DNA from: a virus
Taxonomy: Duplodnaviria; Heunggongvirae; Uroviricota; Caudoviricetes
Virus record (IMG/VR): IMGVR_UViG_2609459857_000004
Location: 1 to 31,179 of that record
Length of the DNA: 31,179 bases
Strand: one strand, 5' to 3'
Shown: piece by piece, positions 1,307 through 21,336 of the stretch
How positions within the stretch are numbered: the stretch's first letter is position 1
How the letters are laid out: each line of letters begins with the position of its first letter
Program-made: the position numbers and the translations under genes
Notes under the pieces: generated by a model
What the model saw: the letters and a program-made list of their open reading frames with translations, nothing else
Told to the model about the DNA's origin: nothing
Databases searched by the model: none

Positions 1307-3763
1307 TTAAAAATCAACCGGATTCGGGATCAATTTTTGCCAGATTGCTGAAACGTATTTTGCCTGGTGATTGGCGTCATCCAGTGCATTGTGGGGTACA
1401 CCTTCGAACGGGATAGCTGTTCTGGCATCAAAACCGATGGTTTTTCCCAGTTCAACAATTGTGCGCACGTCGCGATCGTTGCAGTAACGCCACGGGCAGG
1501 GGATCCCCTGCCGTTCATATGAACGGCGTAAAATTGCGTTGTCGAAAGTTGCACCATTGCCCCATACCTGCACGAATTTTTCATCTGAATGCTCGCTGAT
1601 GAATTCCCTGAATTGCAGCAGCGCATCATCTAATGGGATTTGATTTACCAAAATTGCAGATCTGACCTCGCTGGACTGCACCAGCCACCATTCGATTGTG
1701 CTTATGTCGACAGTGCCGCCACCGGTTTTTGCATCAATCGTTTTGCTGAACTCCGGCCCCATCTCTCCGGTTTCGGGATCAAAAAATTTACCGCCAATAG
1801 AGTTGATTGGTGCATCAGGGTTTGTTCCCATCGTTTCAAGGTCGACCGAAAGATGATTCCATACTCTGCTGGTGGATGTGATAACGTGATGACTGTTCAC
1901 CGTAATTAAGGGATCCGCCGTCTCGCCAGTTTCACTATCGCTGGCGTTGTCCTGAGCGCTGCCAGCATTCTCCTTGTGTGGATGTTCAGCGCCTTCCATT
2001 TCCTCCGGATCATTTTCCTGAACTTCAACCTGATTCTCTTCATTGAATGTTTCCTGGTATGTTGCGTCGCCCATCACCGCGCCACAATCAGGGCAGTTGC
2101 CGCCACCGCTCTGACCGCAGGCGGTGCAGACTTTTTCCGGTTCCTGTTGCGCTACTGGTTCGGATTGTTTCGTTTCTGGCTCGTTTTGTAACGCATTTGA
2201 GCTGTTTTGTTCCTCTTTCTGGTCGTTCTGTTCCGTTTCTTGCTGGTTCTGGTTCACAGAATCGCGGGTTTCAATCCCCTTCACCCATTTCGGATCATTC
2301 GGGTCGCTAATCCCTGCAACAAATTCACCGCGAGAGGCCGCAAGCAACTTATCGGCGTCAGGCTGGCTGATATTGGCTGCCTGCATAATTTTGTTTACTT
2401 CGTCAGCGGTAACTTTTACCTGATTAACTGGATCTATCTGTGCCTGAGCATCCAGCGATTGCGTGTCCTGGCGATGTTCAGTTGTATCCGGTTCCATTGT
2501 TTCAGCCGTTGCCTGTTCATCTGCCATTGCGTCAGACGGTTGTGATTTTTCCTCATTATTTTTTTCTTCTTCTGTCTCGCGTTCAGCAGCCAGTTCGCGG
2601 TTAACTTCTTCCAGGATATCTTTTTCCGGTGTATGTCGTGCAGCAGCGAGAGTTTCCTCGGTAGGGTTCTCGTGATCAGTCTCCGTTAAATAGGCGTTGA
2701 TATACCCCTGAAGGCGTCCCGGGTAATGATAAAACTCAGGGTGTGCGCTCCGGATAAGTGCAAAAATAGCGGCGCGGGAATAATCCAGGATACCCGGGAT
2801 TGCGCGAAGTGCTGCGGACCATTCTTTGAACGGACTTTCTTTCTTCTGGACGACTTCTTTTGCGCGACGATAAACGCTGCCCGGAATTTCATAAATATTA
2901 AAATCCATCGGAAGTGTGGCCGCTGCAATCTCCACATCCAGCGTATCGAAGGTGTGTACTAAATTCGGATTGCGATCGGTTTTGTTCCCTCCACCGGCAT
3001 TAGCGCCGGAAGCCGTGCGGGTGATACGAGAAACACGATTTCCTTTCATCCACTCTTTTGTCAGCAGACCGCGATCGGTGTAGTCAGCGCCCAGGTATGC
3101 TTCGAAAAAAGCAGTCATTAGCCCCAGGCCTGAATTGCCAGGATTAGGGAAAACTTTGTCAGTATCACGCACCAGTTTGTGGAGATCGCGAATTTCCAGT
3201 GGATCGAGCAGACTGGTTTTATGCGAAATAGCGAGGGCAGTAACAGCTGGTAGTTCTTCAGCCCGTGCAATGTGTAATGCCTGGAGTTCGTCGCGTGAAA
3301 CGTGCGTTACCGGTTTTTCGCTGCCACGTTGAGCAAGCCAGCGAATGGGCAGTTCCTGACCGGAAACCGGCAGGAGCATGTTCTCCTCAATCTCAGCCAT
3401 GTCTTCGCCGTTGACGTTGGTATTGTCAGTGCTGGCTGGTTTATCCTGAACAGAGGGCGAGGGCGCGATAAGTACCATTGTGATACCATCTTCTCCGCCT
3501 TTTTCGTATCGGTTGCAGAATTCGGTATCAAACACGCCTTCCGGAGGAAGGTCATTCACAACGGGTAAATGGACGCGAACAGGTTTTTTAAAATCCTCTT
3601 CGTCAAATCCGGCATCGTCCATTGCGACAACACCGCGTGATATTGCAACCGATAATTTTTTTGCTGTGCGCCAGTAAAAACCGCCTTTAATCCCAAGACG
3701 TTTTCTGACTTTGTCATTTTTGGCTTCGTAATATAGTGCAATTTCTTCTTTATCAGCGCTCAT
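1307..3763 (-). CDS. RecE-like prophage exonuclease with C-terminal DEDDh (DnaQ-like) 3'-5' exonuclease domain
   Basis: 818-aa ORF with RBS GAGG upstream of ATG; C-terminal ~190 aa carry Exo I (VDLETMG), Exo II ([11 protein letters not shown]) and Exo III (HNALDDA) motifs; N-terminal region recalled as RecE-like, with an acidic low-complexity E/Q/N-rich linker. Confidence 0.65.
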
Positions 3764-16006: not shown

Positions 16007-16081
<75 letters not shown>

Positions 16082-16442
16082 GCATTTGAAATAAGCCTTA
16101 TTGTATTGCAGCACTGGCGTATTTTTATTACGTGGGAGCAGGTTGTTTTGAAAAAGCATTCTGTTCTCTGGCTATGATTTGAGGCCAGGTTAGCCTCAGT
16201 GCTGATTTTTTTACGGCAGCAGAATGGTGCATTGCTGGTTGGGATTTTGTATTTCCTGGCAGGGTCGGTGATGCATCATTCTGGTGTTGTAAATAACACC
16301 ATCGGGGCGCTCCTCAGGGCGAGGGTGGTTAAAAGAGTCGGTTTAGCGGGAAACCACAGTATTCATACAGGACGGAATACTTCGGGAGGCACCCGACGCC
16401 TCGATTTTATTACAATTAAAAAATTCATTCCTTGCATTGACC

Positions 16443-16469
16443 AACCGCCGTATCTGGCGGTTTTTTTTA
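16443..16469 (+). terminator. rho-independent terminator
   Basis: 7-bp stem AACCGCC/GGCGGTT, 6-nt loop, 8-T run. Confidence 0.65.
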
Positions 16470-16480
16470 TTCTTAATTCG

Positions 16481-16515
16481 AAAAAAGAAAACACGGACAC
16501 TGATAATGTCCGTGT
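16481..16515 (-). terminator. rho-independent terminator (minus-strand orientation)
   Basis: Perfect 9-bp stem ACACGGACA/TGTCCGTGT with 7-nt loop; A-run on plus strand gives a U-tract on the minus strand. Confidence 0.5.
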
Positions 16516-16790
16516 GGCAATGCCATGTAAGTCAGCGATGAATATGGCGCAAAAAAAGCGCGGCTGTCGGATTAACGCCGCGGGACAAAGTCCATGAAGA
16601 ATAATAAGTATTGGCCCCCTTCCGGGGACATGTTCATACTACCAAGATTCAGAAGTGGTTTAAATCCTCAAATTAACTTTAATTTCCGATAAGTCTTATT
16701 TCATTTCTTTGCGCCACATCTGGAGCTCATCAAATAACGCCACGCAAAGGGCGTCTGCGGATGCCGGTGCTTTTGACGGGGTGTTTTTTA

Positions 16791-16816
16791 CGGGCCGCTG
16801 GTGGCCCTTTTTTTAT
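16791..16816 (+). terminator. rho-independent terminator immediately upstream of the holin gene
   Basis: Stem GGGCC/GGCCC with 6-nt loop and 7-T run, ending 14 nt before the holin RBS. Confidence 0.6.
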
Positions 16817-16833
16817 TTACAGGAGAAAAAAGT

Positions 16834-17226
16834 ATGTCTGAACCCTTATCCGGTTCCGGCACGGCTGCGGCGCTCGGCGGGGCGACGGTGTACGGGCTGT
16901 TTACCGGGACGGATTTCGGGATTGTGTTTGGTGCGTTCGCCGGGGCGTTATTTGTGGCAACGATGCCGCAGGCGCTTTCAGCCTGGCGTGTGGCGGCGCA
17001 TTTTCTGGTGTCGTTCATTATCGGCGTGCTGGGGGCAGAGGTTCTGGCGTCATGGCTGGTAAAGCATACAGGGTTTGACGGTGCACCTGTCGACGCACTG
17101 TGTGCAGTGCTGGTGTCAGTGGTGTCGGTGAAGATTCTGTCGTTCATCCACCAGCAGGATATTGCATCACTGGTGTCCGGTGTGTTCTCCCGCCTGCGGG
17201 GCGGAGGAGGCGGCAATGTTAAGTAA
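16834..17226 (+). CDS. putative holin (multi-pass membrane protein)
   Basis: 130 aa from ATG 16834 with AGGAG RBS; Gly/Ala-rich hydrophobic segments; first gene of the lysis cassette. Confidence 0.55.
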   Translation: MSEPLSGSGTAAALGGATVYGLFTGTDFGIVFGAFAGALFVATMPQALSAWRVAAHFLVSFIIGVLGAEVLASWLVKHTGFDGAPVDALCAVLVSVVSVKILSFIHQQDIASLVSGVFSRLRGGGGGNVK

Positions 17227-17491
17227 CCTTCCCGGATTGCTGAATGTGGCGTTATGCACGGTTATCGTGCTGACGCTCTTTTTTTATCGTCGTCGTGACT
17301 CCAGACACAAACCGCTGATGTCATGGCTGGCCTGGCTGCTGATGCTGCTGTATGCCTTTACGCCCCTCAGCTATCTGTGCGGTCGCCCGTTAGCGGCGAA
17401 CTGGCTGGCGGTGGGGCTTAATCTGCTGTTCTGCGTGCTGGTGATACGTGCACGCGGGAACGTTTCAAAAATCCTTTCATTCCGGAGGTGA
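17216..17491 (+). CDS. second lysis-cassette membrane protein (holin/antiholin-like)
   Basis: 91 aa from ATG 17216 with GGAGGAGG RBS; two hydrophobic helices and a charged C-terminus; overlaps neighbours on both sides. Confidence 0.5.
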   Translation: MLSNLPGLLNVALCTVIVLTLFFYRRRDSRHKPLMSWLAWLLMLLYAFTPLSYLCGRPLAANWLAVGLNLLFCVLVIRARGNVSKILSFRR

Positions 17492-17871
17492 GCATGTCGG
17501 GTAAATTCAGATTCAGTCGTCGCAGTGAAAAAAATCTGGGGGGCGTCAAACCACAGCTGGTTGCTGTCGTTCGCCGTGCCCTTGAGCTGACGGAGGTTGA
17601 TTTCGGTATTACGGAAGGCCTGCGCAGTAAGTATCGCCAGAAACAGCTGGTTGCAGAAGGTAAGAGCCAGACCATGAACAGCCGCCACCTGACCGGTGAT
17701 GCGGTGGATGTTGTGGCCTACGTTGGCAGCCAGGTGTCATGGGACTGGCCTCTGTACGAGAAAATCGCACAGGCATTTAAGCAGGCTGCCGCAGAGCTGG
17801 GAGTCGCCATCGAATGGGGCGGGGACTGGAAAACGCTGAAGGACGGGCCGCACTTCCAATTGAAACGCTGA
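17488..17871 (+). CDS. endolysin, peptidase M15-like (L-alanyl-D-glutamate peptidase type)
   Basis: 127-aa ORF overlapping the preceding gene; H...D...H signature (SRHLTGDAVD ... GPHF) recalled from M15/VanY-like endolysins. Confidence 0.6.
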   Translation: MSMSGKFRFSRRSEKNLGGVKPQLVAVVRRALELTEVDFGITEGLRSKYRQKQLVAEGKSQTMNSRHLTGDAVDVVAYVGSQVSWDWPLYEKIAQAFKQAAAELGVAIEWGGDWKTLKDGPHFQLKR

Positions 17872-17885
17872 TAGCCGGGCGAGTT

Positions 17886-18068
17886 ATGAGTCGAAAACAC
17901 TGGACACATAGAATGCCGCGAACGGCAGCGAAATGGGCACTGGTAGCGATACTGGTGCCTTTTTTATTGGTGGGATGCGTCAGCCTGGATAAGGCGCGCC
18001 AGCTTTTCGATACAGCTTCTCAGGTCTGTGAAATTGTCGACGGTGTCCGGCAGTGTATGCAGAACTGA
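17886..18068 (+). CDS. lysis-associated lipoprotein (spanin-like)
   Basis: 60 aa from ATG 17886; lipoprotein signal with LLVGC lipobox; follows the endolysin; no separate Rz-like ORF seen. Confidence 0.4.
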   Translation: MSRKHWTHRMPRTAAKWALVAILVPFLLVGCVSLDKARQLFDTASQVCEIVDGVRQCMQN

Positions 18069-18097
18069 TCGCCTGATAATTGTTTTACTAAGGAGAA

Positions 18098-18289
18098 ATG
18101 ATGGAATCGCCAATTATGAAATATTTCAATTATGAGCATCTTCCGACTTCGTTAAAGGAAGTGAGTAAGCCAATTGGTGATCTGGCAAGAGTAATGGATG
18201 AATCTTTGCCAGACGGTCCGGAAAAGTCGGCTGGGTTACGTAAATTGCTTGAAGCAAAAGATGCTCTGGTGCGAGCGAAACTGGGTTAA
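18098..18289 (+). CDS. hypothetical small protein
   Basis: 63-aa ORF with AAGGAGA RBS. Confidence 0.4.
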   Translation: MMESPIMKYFNYEHLPTSLKEVSKPIGDLARVMDESLPDGPEKSAGLRKLLEAKDALVRAKLG

Positions 18290-18298
18290 GGCATTACA

Positions 18299-18322
18299 GC
18301 AGCCCTTCAGCTGAGGGGCTGC
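18299..18322. terminator. near-perfect palindromic hairpin between convergent genes (no U-tract)
   Basis: GCAGCCCTTCAGC/GCTGAGGGGCTGC-type palindrome between the 18289 plus-strand stop and the 18332 minus-strand stop. Confidence 0.35.
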
Positions 18323-18331
18323 AATAATGCT

Positions 18332-18538
18332 TTAGTTGTCTTTCATAAATCCTTTAATGACCCATCCCACAAGCCTGGTGATGCTGTACACAAACAAGGC
18401 AATTATCAGAGATACAAGGATATCAAACAGTGAGAATCCTTGCGTATCCGTTGTTGAAAATAAAAGACTAAAGATGAACACCAGAATGGCCAACAGAATA
18501 CCTACCCGGTGAAAGCCTTTAGAAATCATGTTTTTCAT
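18332..18538 (-). CDS. small two-helix membrane protein (opposite-strand moron)
   Basis: 68-aa ORF with GGAGG RBS 7 nt upstream of ATG; two hydrophobic segments; only minus-strand gene in the late region. Confidence 0.5.
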   Translation of the reverse strand: MKNMISKGFHRVGILLAILVFIFSLLFSTTDTQGFSLFDILVSLIIALFVYSITRLVGWVIKGFMKDN

Positions 18539-18599
18539 TTGTCCTCCATATTTGTTTTTTTAAAGGGTGGGCATTTTAACATCAGAAGGGTGAAGTTCT

Positions 18600-18950
18600 A
18601 TGCCATCACGAATCCCCCGCACATGCCGTAAACGTGGATGTGCAGGTACAACCACAGACAGTTCTGGTTACTGCGATAAACATCGTGGTGAAGGATGGGC
18701 ACAGCATCAACGCGGACTGAGCCGCCACCAGCGCGGCTATGGCTCAAAATGGACGGTGATTCGTGCCCGTCTTCTGAAGCGCGATAAAGGTCTGTGTCAG
18801 TTGTGTCTGCGTGTCGGTGTGGTGAGCGAGGCGAAAACCGTCGACCACATCATCCCGAAAGCGCATGGCGGGACAGACGCAGACAGCAACCTGCAGAGTC
18901 TGTGCTGGCCCTGCCACAAAGCGAAAACAGCGCGTGAACGAATAAAGTGA
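18600..18950 (+). CDS. HNH endonuclease (packaging-associated)
   Basis: 116 aa; HNH motif DHIIPKAHGG...N...CWPCH; sits immediately upstream of the terminase genes. Confidence 0.8.
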   Translation: MPSRIPRTCRKRGCAGTTTDSSGYCDKHRGEGWAQHQRGLSRHQRGYGSKWTVIRARLLKRDKGLCQLCLRVGVVSEAKTVDHIIPKAHGGTDADSNLQSLCWPCHKAKTARERIK

Positions 18951-19096
18951 TAATTATTCTCACTTGTGGGGAGGGCGGGTCAAATCCCTGCAGCCCTGGC
19001 TGTCCGGGACCGCCCGCCAACCCTTCTTCGCATCGCCGCAGGTTCGAAAACTTTTTTTTGGGAATGCGATCAAACGATTGATAGGTAAAACCGATT
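18951..19096. other. candidate cos / packaging-site region
   Basis: GC-rich element with inverted GGCGGG...CCCGCC arms, then a T-run, between the HNH and small terminase genes. Confidence 0.3.
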
Positions 19097-19579
19097 ATGT
19101 CAGGACCCCCGAAAACCCCGCCACGCCTGCATTTGATACGAGGCAACCCCTCAAAGCGGCCAGTTAAAGACCCCAAAAAAACCGCTAAAAAGGATGAAAA
19201 AGGTCTCCCTAAAATTCCGCAACATTTAGGGGCGCAGGGGAAGTACTGGTTCAGGCGAATGGCGGAAGAGCTGAATGCGGAAGGGATCATTTCTCAGCTT
19301 GATGCGCGTGCACTCGAGTTACTGGTGGAAGCCTACACCGAATACCGGCATCACTGCGAAACACTCGATGTTGAGGGGTATACCTACCGCACGGAAACGC
19401 AGAATGGCGATGTGATGATCAAGGCACATCCGGCTGCGGCGATGAAAGCGGATGCCTGGAAGCGGATTCGGGCGATGCTTGCAGAGTTTGGTATGTCACC
19501 GGCAAGCCGGGCGAAAGTAAATATCGCCGGACCGGATGATGTTGATCCGCTGGCAGAGCTTTTAAAAGCGAGAGACTGA
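19097..19579 (+). CDS. terminase small subunit (P27-family-like)
   Basis: 160-aa basic ORF directly upstream of and overlapping the large terminase start. Confidence 0.65.
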   Translation: MSGPPKTPPRLHLIRGNPSKRPVKDPKKTAKKDEKGLPKIPQHLGAQGKYWFRRMAEELNAEGIISQLDARALELLVEAYTEYRHHCETLDVEGYTYRTETQNGDVMIKAHPAAAMKADAWKRIRAMLAEFGMSPASRAKVNIAGPDDVDPLAELLKARD

Positions 19580-21336
19580 TGGCAAAAGTGGCTGACGGGA
19601 TCCGCTACGCCGAACGTGTTGTTGCAGGAGAAATTGTTGCTGGCGAATTTGTCCGTCTGGCCTGCCAGCGTTTTCTTGATGATCTGAAGTACGGCGAAGA
19701 GCGGGGGATTTATTTCAGTGAACCCCGTGCGCAGCACATCCTGAATTTCTATAAATTTGTGCCCCATGTGAAAGGGGCGCTGGCAGGCCAGCCCATTGAG
19801 TTGATGGACTGGCATGTTTTTATCCTCATTAATATTTTTGGTTTTGTCATTCCGCTGGTGAATGAAGAGACCGGGGAAGTTGTCATGCGCAGCGATGGCA
19901 GCGGACGCCCGGTGATGGTGCGCCGGTTCCGGACAGCGTACAACGAAGTCGCCCGTAAAAACGCAAAATCAACCCTGTCATCGGGTATCGGTCTGTATAT
20001 GACGGGGGCAGATGGTGAAGGCGGGGCTGAGGTGTATTCAGCCGCAACCACGCGTGACCAGGCCAGAATCGTGTTTGAAGACGCCAAAAATATGGTCAGA
20101 AAAGCCCGGTCGACACTCGGGCGATTGTTTGATTTCAACAAGCTGGCGATTTACCAGGAGCAGAGCGCATCAAAATTTGAACCGCTTTCCTCGGATGCAA
20201 ACAACCTGGACGGTCTGAACATCCACTGCGCCATTATTGATGAGCTGCATGCACATAAAACCCGCGACGTGTGGGACGTTCTGGAAACGGCAACCGGTGC
20301 TCGTCTGCAGTCCCTGTTATTTGGTATCACCACGGCTGGCTTTAACAAGGAAGGGATTTGTTACGAGCAACGCGATTACGCCATCAAGGTATTGCGTGGC
20401 TATAACAGCGACGTGGAGGGCGCGGTAAAAGACGACTCCTACTTTGCGATTATTTACACCCTCGATGAGGGAGATGATCCGTTTGATGAAACGGTCTGGC
20501 AGAAAGCGAATCCCGGACTGGGCATCTGTAAACGCTGGGATGATCTGCGTCGTCTGGCGAAAAAAGCGAAAGAACAGGTCTCTGCGCGGGTGAATTTTTT
20601 TACCAAACACATGAATGTGTGGGTAACAGCAGAGTCTGCCTGGATGGACATGATTAAGTGGGAGAAGTGCGAATACATTGCCCCACGACATGAGCTGAAA
20701 ACGTATCCCATGTGGGTCGGCGTTGACCTTGCTCATAAGATTGATATCTGTGCGGCGGCAAAACTCTGGCGAACGGATAACGGGCATGTTCATGCCGATT
20801 TTAAATTCTGGCTTCCGGAAGGACGGCTGGAACGATGCTCGCGGCAGCAGGCAGAACTTTACCGGAAGTGGGCGGAGATGGATAAGCTCATCCTGACGGA
20901 TGGTGATGTTATCGATCATGCTCAGATAAAAAGTGACTTACTGGAATGGATTGGCGGTGAAAACCTCAGGGAACTGGGATTTGACCCGTGGAGTGCAATG
21001 CAGTTCAGTCTGGCTCTGGCTGAAGAAGGGATATCGCTGGTGGAAGTTCCGCAGACGGTCCGCAATCTGTCAGAGGCCATGAAGGAAACGGAATCACTGG
21101 TCTATGCCGGGCGTTTCCATCACAGCAATCACCCGGTCATGAACTGGATGATGTCTAACGTTACGGTAAAACCGGACAAAAACGACAATATCTTCCCGAA
21201 CAAATCCACGCCTGAAGCCAAAATCGACGGCCCTGTTGCGATGTTTACAGCAATGAGCCGGATGCTGGTCAATGGCGGTGAACCGGAGCCGGATCTGTCT
21301 GAACACCTGATTAGTGTTGGTATCCGCTCGCTTTAA
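19579..21336 (+). CDS. terminase large subunit
   Basis: 585-aa ORF with N-terminal ATPase-like and C-terminal nuclease-like regions; located between small terminase and portal. Confidence 0.85.

Follow-up and report, generated by a model that had tools for sequence, protein, structure and literature searches.

The stretch of DNA analysed here, 31,179 nucleotides long and referred to as the window (positions 1 to 31,179 of IMG/VR virus record IMGVR_UViG_2609459857_000004), is a phiP27-like prophage of Escherichia coli that carries, between its lysis and packaging genes, a small open reading frame (ORF) running against the late operon. We call this 68-residue minus-strand ORF (18332-18538) tm68, and the plus-strand ORF that converges on it orf63. 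Our best overall explanation, to which we assign a probability of roughly 55%, is that tm68 is a moron whose product is a membrane protein and would most likely protect the lysogen. The architectural part of this explanation, namely a moron encoding a membrane protein, is held with good confidence, while superinfection exclusion as the specific function is a tentative proposal, drawn by analogy, with well under an even chance of being right. As a class of object tm68 is ordinary: an uncharacterised, moron-encoded small membrane protein from a recognisable, unnamed family.

Length alone does not place tm68 beyond chance, since 54 ORFs of at least 30 residues overlap the 4 kb around it, and the case for a gene comes from comparison. 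Intact homologues with 60-100% protein identity occur in about 25 Escherichia and Citrobacter loci. The gene is present in 16 of 5426 complete E. coli genomes, and further homologues were found in E. albertii, in Citrobacter braakii and on eight IMG/VR contigs. Start, stop and length (65-70 residues) are kept and the frame is intact in all that were found, the sole exception in length being a prophage remnant in which a deletion end-point falls in the last codons of the gene. This remnant, fused to hyaA in E. coli STEC306-308 (L006:2937-3185), encodes an 82-residue tm68 variant with a foreign C-terminus. E. coli C311 and 401651, in contrast, each have 229 bp of tm68 sequence that is identical to that of the window. 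At DNA divergences of up to about 27% the ORF remains intact, most of the changes being at third codon positions, and the Nei-Gojobori ratio of nonsynonymous to synonymous substitution rates (dN/dS) is 0.12-0.33 in every well-diverged pair (dS 0.4-1.5). From this pattern of substitution we take tm68 to be a protein-coding gene under purifying selection. The first-pass annotation of the window, made from the sequence alone, had let its case turn on conservation in related prophages; the gene proved to be rare, at the frequency given above, but intact and under purifying selection wherever it is present. That tm68 is a decaying remnant or an annotation artefact without function is highly improbable. 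Its rarity, the lack of a family assignment and six intact E. coli copies left unannotated by the Prokaryotic Genome Annotation Pipeline (PGAP) are what such a reading would draw on, but the ORF survives intact to 40% protein divergence at the low dN/dS just given, and its start, stop, putative promoter and Shine-Dalgarno sequence are all conserved.

The position of the gene is equally constant. At the P27-type loci found by tblastn, tm68 is always divergent from a gene for an HNH endonuclease, and its start lies about 60 nucleotides from the HNH start in all of those inspected; its place beside HNH is constant, whereas the genes that separate it from the lysis cassette differ between loci. 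A second prophage lineage (loci L003 and L004) has tm68 about 400 nucleotides upstream of a lambda-type small terminase gene, with no HNH gene. Among the close homologues the gene is always past the lysis region and always against the late direction. Its identity across loci is 60-85%, compared with 90-97% for HNH and 92-98% for the endolysin, and it is absent from phiP27 and from about 99% of the prophages that have this lysis cassette. The phiP27 genome itself matches the 1.8 kb around the tm68 locus in part, at 93% identity, while two E. coli chromosomes match it in full at 96-97%. One relative, matching about 70% of window positions 1-24000 at 95% identity, has tm68 (WP_033873286.1) as its sole minus-strand coding sequence between cro and the tail genes in its PGAP annotation; this bears out the earlier claim that the late region has no other minus-strand gene. 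Each element described in the first-pass annotation was found at its stated position, and its interpretation, which is broadly sensible, is supported in part. The features of the locus, in window coordinates, are as follows.

About 16801-17491: two holin-family genes.
17488-17871: M15 endolysin gene.
17886-18068, plus strand: gene for a 60-residue lipoprotein (phrog_7528, lipobox LVGC).
18098-18289, plus strand: orf63, likely start at 18101, a late-operon accessory gene for a predicted soluble three-helix protein.
18287-18334, no strand: hairpin with 24-nucleotide arms, spanning both stop codons.
18331-18599, minus strand: inserted cassette of 269 bp comprising predicted promoter, Shine-Dalgarno sequence and tm68 gene, delimited by junction comparison and guanine-plus-cytosine (GC) content.
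18332-18538, minus strand: tm68 coding sequence, 68 codons and stop.
18543-18547, minus strand: Shine-Dalgarno sequence GGAGG, 4 nucleotides before the ATG (CCTCC on the plus strand).
18573-18581, minus strand: putative extended -10 promoter element TGTTAAAAT.
18595-18600, minus strand: -35-like hexamer TAGAAC, overlapping the first base of the HNH start codon.
18600-18950, plus strand: HNH endonuclease gene, first of the packaging module (PF01844, E 1.7e-16, and annotation of relatives).
19097-19579: P27-type small terminase gene.
19579-21336: large terminase gene.

Morons are recognised as DNA that is extra relative to related phages, deviates in GC content, has its own promoter and terminator and is expressed from the repressed prophage (Juhala et al. 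2000, summarised in PMC3594210). The tm68 cassette displays the first two of these properties directly. In phiP27 and locus L029 the HNH start codon follows the hairpin after 19 bp (CGGTATTAAGGAGATTCCA), compared with 269 bp in the window (18331-18599), so that the cassette is extra DNA by comparison with its relatives; and GC content drops to 0.41 and 0.365 in the intervals over the cassette, against 0.54-0.60 in the flanking lysis and packaging genes, a clear deviation in base composition. The HNH gene, the divergent neighbour of tm68, lies outside the cassette and marks its right border. On the other side tm68 abuts the hairpin, with its stop codon in the outer 3' arm; we considered the hairpin as part of the cassette and rejected this, the hairpin being present in prophages that lack tm68, phiP27 included.

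Upstream of the tm68 ATG, the strong ribosome-binding site reported in the first-pass annotation is confirmed as a GGAGG at a distance of 4 nucleotides; this motif is GGAGG or GGAGA in P27-type loci and GGAAA in L003 and L004. Further upstream, each of the 12 loci displayed has TAGAA(C/T), a variable spacer and GATG-N-TAAAAT. The extended -10 sequence TGnTAAAAT and its distance from the ATG are invariant across the 12, including L003 and L004, the flanks of which are otherwise unrelated. The -35-like hexamer TAGAAC matches TTGACA at 3 of 6 positions and is separated from the -10 hexamer by a 16-nucleotide spacer. A search of the whole 31-kb window with TGNTAAAAT returned a single match, which is not significant because 1.65 are expected by chance. 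It is accordingly the position and the conservation of the element that argue for a promoter, whose activity is a prediction; transcription is predicted to start near 18566, giving a leader of about 28 nucleotides.

The hairpin at the other end of the gene is an inverted repeat with 24-nucleotide arms, bounded exactly by the two stop codons (18287-18334). Its folding energy is -31.3 kcal/mol for the plus strand and -25.3 kcal/mol for the minus strand, with a z-score of about -5.7 and none of 200 shuffled sequences as stable. The strong palindromic hairpin described earlier between the two convergent ORFs is therefore real, but it is not special to them and also occurs in prophages that have neither gene. 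When positions 18290-18600 were used as a query, the first 40-50 nucleotides, corresponding to the hairpin, were found in 183 E. coli records, of which only 16 have tm68. The hairpin is present without tm68 in phiP27, L029, L030, L031 and L039, and copies were located at L002:3089, L029:1494, L030:1494, L031:1494 and L039:2686. In phiP27, L005, L029 and L030 the last plus-strand accessory gene before it is a 98-residue L33-like gene; in the window and L039 it is orf63. The 17-bp stem is nearly invariant among 11 distinct versions, with one compensatory change in each of three pairs, while the loop varies in length and sequence. Altogether the hairpin stands immediately ahead of the packaging genes in over 160 E. 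coli prophages, both lambdoid and P27-like, whose terminase types differ, whatever accessory genes flank it, and because it is kept whichever accessory gene adjoins, we regard it as a general late-operon boundary element. Candidate roles are a late-operon terminator, an RNA-end structure or a recombination joint; the first two are the more probable, with the hairpin serving each of the converging transcripts in this way, it may be read through by antiterminated polymerase, and termination of the tm68 transcript at this site is plausible. A simple terminator scan did not report the hairpin, and an Rfam scan of 17600-19200 returned nothing. In prophage L030 (E. coli U90), an unrelated minus-strand gene for a 65-residue, cysteine-rich, zinc-ribbon-like protein (1597-1794, minus strand) directly follows the same hairpin and has a terminator-like hairpin of its own. 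The presence of a different backwards gene in the same place indicates that the slot after the hairpin is a recurrent site for backwards add-on genes.

The product of tm68 has two hydrophobic segments, at residues ~12-28 and 35-54. An AlphaFold2 model built on a 60-sequence alignment is a helical hairpin with helices at residues 2-28 and 37-67 and a mean predicted local distance difference test score (pLDDT) of 88.7, in agreement with the initial description of a 68-residue two-helix membrane protein on the minus strand. The N-terminus has three lysine or arginine residues and no aspartate or glutamate, the loop has none and two, respectively, and the C-terminus three and one. By the positive-inside rule, this charge pattern would place both ends in the cytoplasm and about 8-10 residues in the periplasm, and the protein is thus probably a helical-hairpin membrane protein of N-in/C-in topology. 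Since it contains no cysteine, it has no lipobox and is not a lipoprotein.

A two-helix membrane protein encoded next to a lysis cassette could be a component of lysis timing, such as a holin, an antiholin or a pinholin-like protein. The gene adjoins the holin, endolysin and lipoprotein genes, the product has the format of the phage 21 pinholin S21-68, and a search of the PHROG database gave a weak match to the holin/antiholin family phrog_126 (E 0.19). This match is not significant, however, and because tm68 lies on the opposite strand with its own predicted promoter, it would not be co-transcribed with the lysis genes. Two holin-family genes are already present in the prophage, phiP27 and about 99% of the prophages with this lysis cassette do without tm68, and the gene stays by HNH while those toward the lysis cassette change. 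We therefore consider a role in lysis timing quite unlikely, and membership in a holin or antiholin family was rejected for want of a significant model match and on account of the opposing strand.

Searches for relatives of tm68 with a name were uniformly negative. Against Pfam at E up to 1, the best matches were DUF6526 and PspG at E of about 0.2, with neither Lambda_Bor nor YebO among them; phage shock protein G (PF09583) scored 12.3 bits (E 0.22), below its gathering threshold of 25 bits. The best PHROG match (E 0.012) was to a family of no stated function. NCBIfam returned only sub-threshold pilin and SecE noise, the 5027 defence-protein models of PADLOC-DB gave no match at E up to 1, and a profile search of PDB sequences found nothing better than E 0.087. 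A tblastn search of 50,697 phage genomes produced no match, and plasmids yielded two weak ones only (E 0.01). A fold search with the tm68 model found nothing at E of 0.001 or below in BFVD or PDB, only generic membrane hairpins. Literature searches on phiP27 morons, accessions, PHROG identifiers and the peptide string recovered nothing on tm68 or orf63.

Profile searches, in contrast, placed tm68 in a wider group. Searched with a hidden Markov model of the close homologues, a set of 1.84 billion representative proteins yielded 62 matches, mostly of 66-80 residues, and a second profile search of a larger database found 90 proteins with the motifs of the family. These motifs are [RK]-x-x-G-F-H-R-x-G before helix 1 and Y-x3-R-x2-G-W-x3-G-F at the end of helix 2; in tm68, GFHRxG occupies residues 8-13 and RxxGWxxxGF residues 55-64, both adjoining the charged ends. 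Among 60 family sequences, F9 is invariant and G8, H10, R11, G13, Y51, G58, W59, G63 and F64 are at least 90% conserved, while the loop varies freely. We define the family by a length of about 65-90 residues, two transmembrane helices and both motifs, all of which tm68 has, and by these shared features tm68 belongs to an unnamed wider family of two-helix proteins of about 70 residues. The homology and structure searches proposed with the original prediction thus matched nothing with a name, but the profile search did reveal this family. Its members carry only generic labels in any source and none has a Pfam domain: 36 members searched against Pfam gave scattered sub-threshold matches, with YebO not among the 25 most frequent families listed, and 60 members searched against PHROGs likewise gave only scattered sub-threshold matches. 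Domain fusions in longer members (tRNA_anti-like, DUF2569) were considered as a clue to function and rejected, having no coherent theme.

Distant members stand singly, often in mobile surroundings, which include integrases, a resolvase, a P63C phage domain and, on E. coli contigs, insertion sequence (IS) elements with Tn3 remnants next to a fimbrial operon. An all-against-all BLAST of the neighbours at 11 loci of distant members found no shared partner gene. At locus L035 the family member follows a 112-residue HTH_3 (CI-like) repressor-like gene with a 4-nucleotide overlap, divergent from a Cro-like gene, and at L021 and L022 it is third in an overlapping operon that is headed by an HTH_3 gene, with SWIB and ParA genes following. 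These arrangements suggest co-transcription with maintenance genes, and such positions are where temperate elements keep genes of the maintenance state.

The distribution of the wider family bears on whether tm68 acts on the host instead of on incoming phages. As a host-physiology or lysogenic-conversion factor, the protein would bind and modulate an inner-membrane protein of the host, such as a transporter, a protease or a sensor kinase, in the manner of the small E. coli membrane proteins MgrB, AcrZ and MgtS, and so change the stress tolerance or colonisation ability of the lysogen. This reading shares its moron architecture with the protective explanation, the frequent chromosomal or plasmid-borne occurrence of the family, for instance beside a fimbrial operon, fits a general cellular target, and the two conserved motifs, being adjacent to the charged ends, hint at a surface for specific binding; bor of lambda, which occupies the same slot, is a factor of this kind. 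Nevertheless, Pfam and NCBIfam gave no homology to a known small regulatory membrane protein, the 11 loci revealed no conserved host-gene neighbour that points to a target, and the faster divergence of tm68 relative to its flanks (60-85% against 90-97% identity) is more typical of genes in phage-phage conflict. On balance we judge a host factor, which corresponds to the lysogenic conversion of the first-pass annotation, to be plausible but unlikely, ranking second after exclusion.

Size, hydrophobicity and solitary occurrence on mobile elements also resemble those of membrane-toxin peptides. A small membrane toxin would, on reaching a raised level, depolarise or permeabilise the inner membrane for abortive infection or prophage stabilisation, under the control of the antisense late transcript or the hairpin; convergent transcription over tm68 is built into the locus, and a Hok/Gef gene is found at another place in a prophage related to this one, such cargo being common. 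A constitutive-looking promoter and a strong GGAGG would nonetheless be unusual for a lethal peptide, no conserved antisense promoter or antitoxin-like partner was found, and there was no match to Hok/Gef, Ldr, TisB or other toxin models in Pfam and NCBIfam. Two transmembrane helices with motifs at both ends are likewise atypical of type I toxins, and we regard this explanation as less likely still.

We return to the explanation that we prefer, in which tm68 would be an accessory transcription unit, complete in itself, that was inserted between the lysis and HNH/terminase genes in the direction opposite to the late operon. A sigma-70 promoter, independent of the phage late regulator, would transcribe tm68 in the repressed prophage, and the transcript would end at the shared hairpin. 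The protein would insert into the inner membrane with both ends in the cytoplasm, and in lytic growth the converging, Q-antiterminated late transcript would run over the gene. Its function would be membrane-level protection of the lysogen, in which entry of a superinfecting genome is blocked at the inner membrane, as by HK97 gp15. We rank exclusion first among the possible functions because the protein is predicted to be small, to act alone and to be integral to the membrane; because it is apparently expressed independently of the lytic programme, to judge from its promoter-like element; because it evolves faster than its neighbours; because one distant member lies directly behind a CI-like repressor gene; and because HK97 gp15, the best-studied moron of this format, does the same.

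Several observations weigh against this explanation. As the searches found no homology to the known exclusion, defence, toxin or holin families, the function is assigned by analogy alone. The MRAQRIKTGFHR subgroup has no relative in IMG/VR, and several members of the family lie in ordinary chromosomal, metabolic-gene or IS-rich surroundings; the family is thus not phage-specific, and the fact that much of it is not phage-borne argues for a more general membrane role. The promoter is a reading of sequence, and a generic consensus promoter scan did not report it, owing to the weak -35 element. No good U-run follows the hairpin on the minus strand, and since the hairpin also occurs without tm68, it is at most a candidate for an own terminator. 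The first transmembrane segment could in principle be a cleaved signal peptide, although the conserved N-terminal motif argues against this. Finally, its rarity (16 of 5426 genomes) indicates that tm68 is dispensable for the phage.

The convergent ORF had been described as a 63-residue partner of tm68. It is indeed present at 18098-18289, but an AAGGAG at 18090-18095 lies 5 nucleotides upstream of a second ATG at 18101, and because this start fits both the spacing and the usual length of the family, the protein likely has 62 residues. Nor are the two a conserved pair: of the 16 complete E. coli genomes that have tm68, only 2 contain both. The orf63 product matches phrog_1761 (E 1.3e-32) and phrog_5120, and more than 3400 protein clusters match it, nearly all of those listed having 62 residues. 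Its matches cover positions 77-138 of the 148-position phrog_1761, and the idea that it is a truncated fragment was rejected, 62 residues being the normal length of the family. Matches occur in 346 phage records, with Vibrio, Acinetobacter, Erwinia, Mycobacterium, Gordonia, Brevibacterium and roseobacter hosts; the orf63 protein of the window shares 81% identity with the copy of a Vibrio phage, about 76% with those of Acinetobacter phages, 58% with that of mycobacteriophage Phayonce and 40% with that of an N4-like roseophage. The conserved core reads F-x-Y-x-H-L-P...V-S-K-P-I-G-D-L-A...G-L-R-K-L-L-E-A-K-D, and the AlphaFold2 model is a three-helix protein (pLDDT 91). No Pfam or NCBIfam match and no informative PDB match, by sequence or by fold, was found, and the homologues are always annotated as hypothetical. 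The gene follows the lysis genes in enterobacterial prophages and Brevibacterium phages, belongs to the head or tail modules of Acinetobacter and Gordonia phages, and is near DNA-metabolism genes elsewhere. We take orf63 to be a bona fide gene, unrelated to tm68 and in some respects more remarkable than it. Strain 401651 (L028, NZ_CM129040.1, and L039) has two orf63 copies in two prophages with different terminases, and the copy outside the P27-like prophage is 100% identical to that of the window, which indicates recent exchange between co-resident prophages. Conservation across phyla suggests a universally conserved target, and orf63 may prove the more rewarding target of the two. We offer as a doubtful extension that the widely distributed tm68 family could be a new class of lone-acting exclusion protein, shielding the cell envelope from incoming phage or plasmid DNA by a new mechanism and repeatedly captured by prophages, and that the orf63 family, in which proteobacterial and actinobacterial phages keep 58-81% identity, could independently be a broad-spectrum host-takeover or counter-defence factor.

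Other features around the lysis cassette were also noticed. The 60-residue lipoprotein (17886-18068) has a mature part of about 30 residues with three cysteines and looks like an outer-membrane spanin component; no ORF for an inner-membrane spanin partner was identified. In a tm68-carrying relative, LT-II-type heat-labile enterotoxin A and B genes lie between holin and endolysin (L004:1976-3121), and in phiP27 stx2e sits upstream of the holins. In the window, a tRNA-Gly(tcc) gene at 16007-16081 is followed by about 700 bp of low GC content without a convincing ORF. At about the same position upstream of the holins, close relatives have TerB-family and DUF3927 genes and phiP27 has stx2e, and the interval 16007-16800 may be an emptied or decayed cargo slot.

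Backwards add-on genes are where lysogens keep helpful traits, including phage exclusion, serum resistance and toxins, and relatives of this prophage have Shiga toxin 2e and an LT-II-like enterotoxin in nearby slots around the lysis genes. The present analysis moves tm68 from an anonymous hypothetical protein to a candidate exclusion or membrane-modulating protein. Even if tm68 were inert, the locus would still document a recurrent moron insertion point defined by a conserved hairpin.

Known systems share separate aspects of this arrangement. T4 Imm and P22 SieA are inner-membrane proteins that block phage DNA injection, and Imm is similar in size to tm68, with two predicted transmembrane helices. 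Both resemble tm68 as small integral inner-membrane proteins acting alone, but there is no detectable homology by Pfam, PHROG or tblastn against the 50,697 phage records; Imm is an early gene of a virulent phage, and SieA is larger and has more transmembrane segments than tm68. The phage 21 pinholin S21-68 has 68 residues and two transmembrane helices and is encoded beside the lysis cassette, three features that tm68 shares. In contrast, tm68 has the opposite orientation, its own predicted promoter and other motifs, it has no sequence similarity to S21-68, and most phages that share these lysis genes lack it.

In phage lambda, bor comes after the lysis genes and before the packaging end and is oriented against late transcription. 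The first-pass annotation had likened the position of tm68 to that of bor, and this much stands: both are accessory genes in the same type of variable post-lysis slot, set against the late operon. There is no relationship to Bor itself, which is an outer-membrane lipoprotein of about 97 residues with a lipobox, whereas tm68 is predicted to be a two-helix integral membrane protein and has neither a cysteine nor a signal-peptidase II site. The identification of tm68 as Bor was rejected on the lack of a cysteine and of a Lambda_Bor match in Pfam at E up to 1, the likeness being positional only. Bor is a prophage-expressed accessory gene that confers serum resistance (PMC3594210).

The closest parallel is HK97 gp15, an inner-membrane exclusion protein of the YebO family that is expressed from the repressed prophage and blocks genome entry, and that derives from the chromosomal YebO family (PMC3594210). 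The two have no sequence relationship, tm68 having no YebO match in Pfam, and gp15 is encoded in the tail operon, tm68 between the lysis and packaging genes in antisense orientation to the late operon. Like gp15, however, tm68 is a small protein, predicted to reside in the inner membrane, that is encoded by an add-on unit in a lambdoid-type late operon and has chromosomal relatives outside phages.

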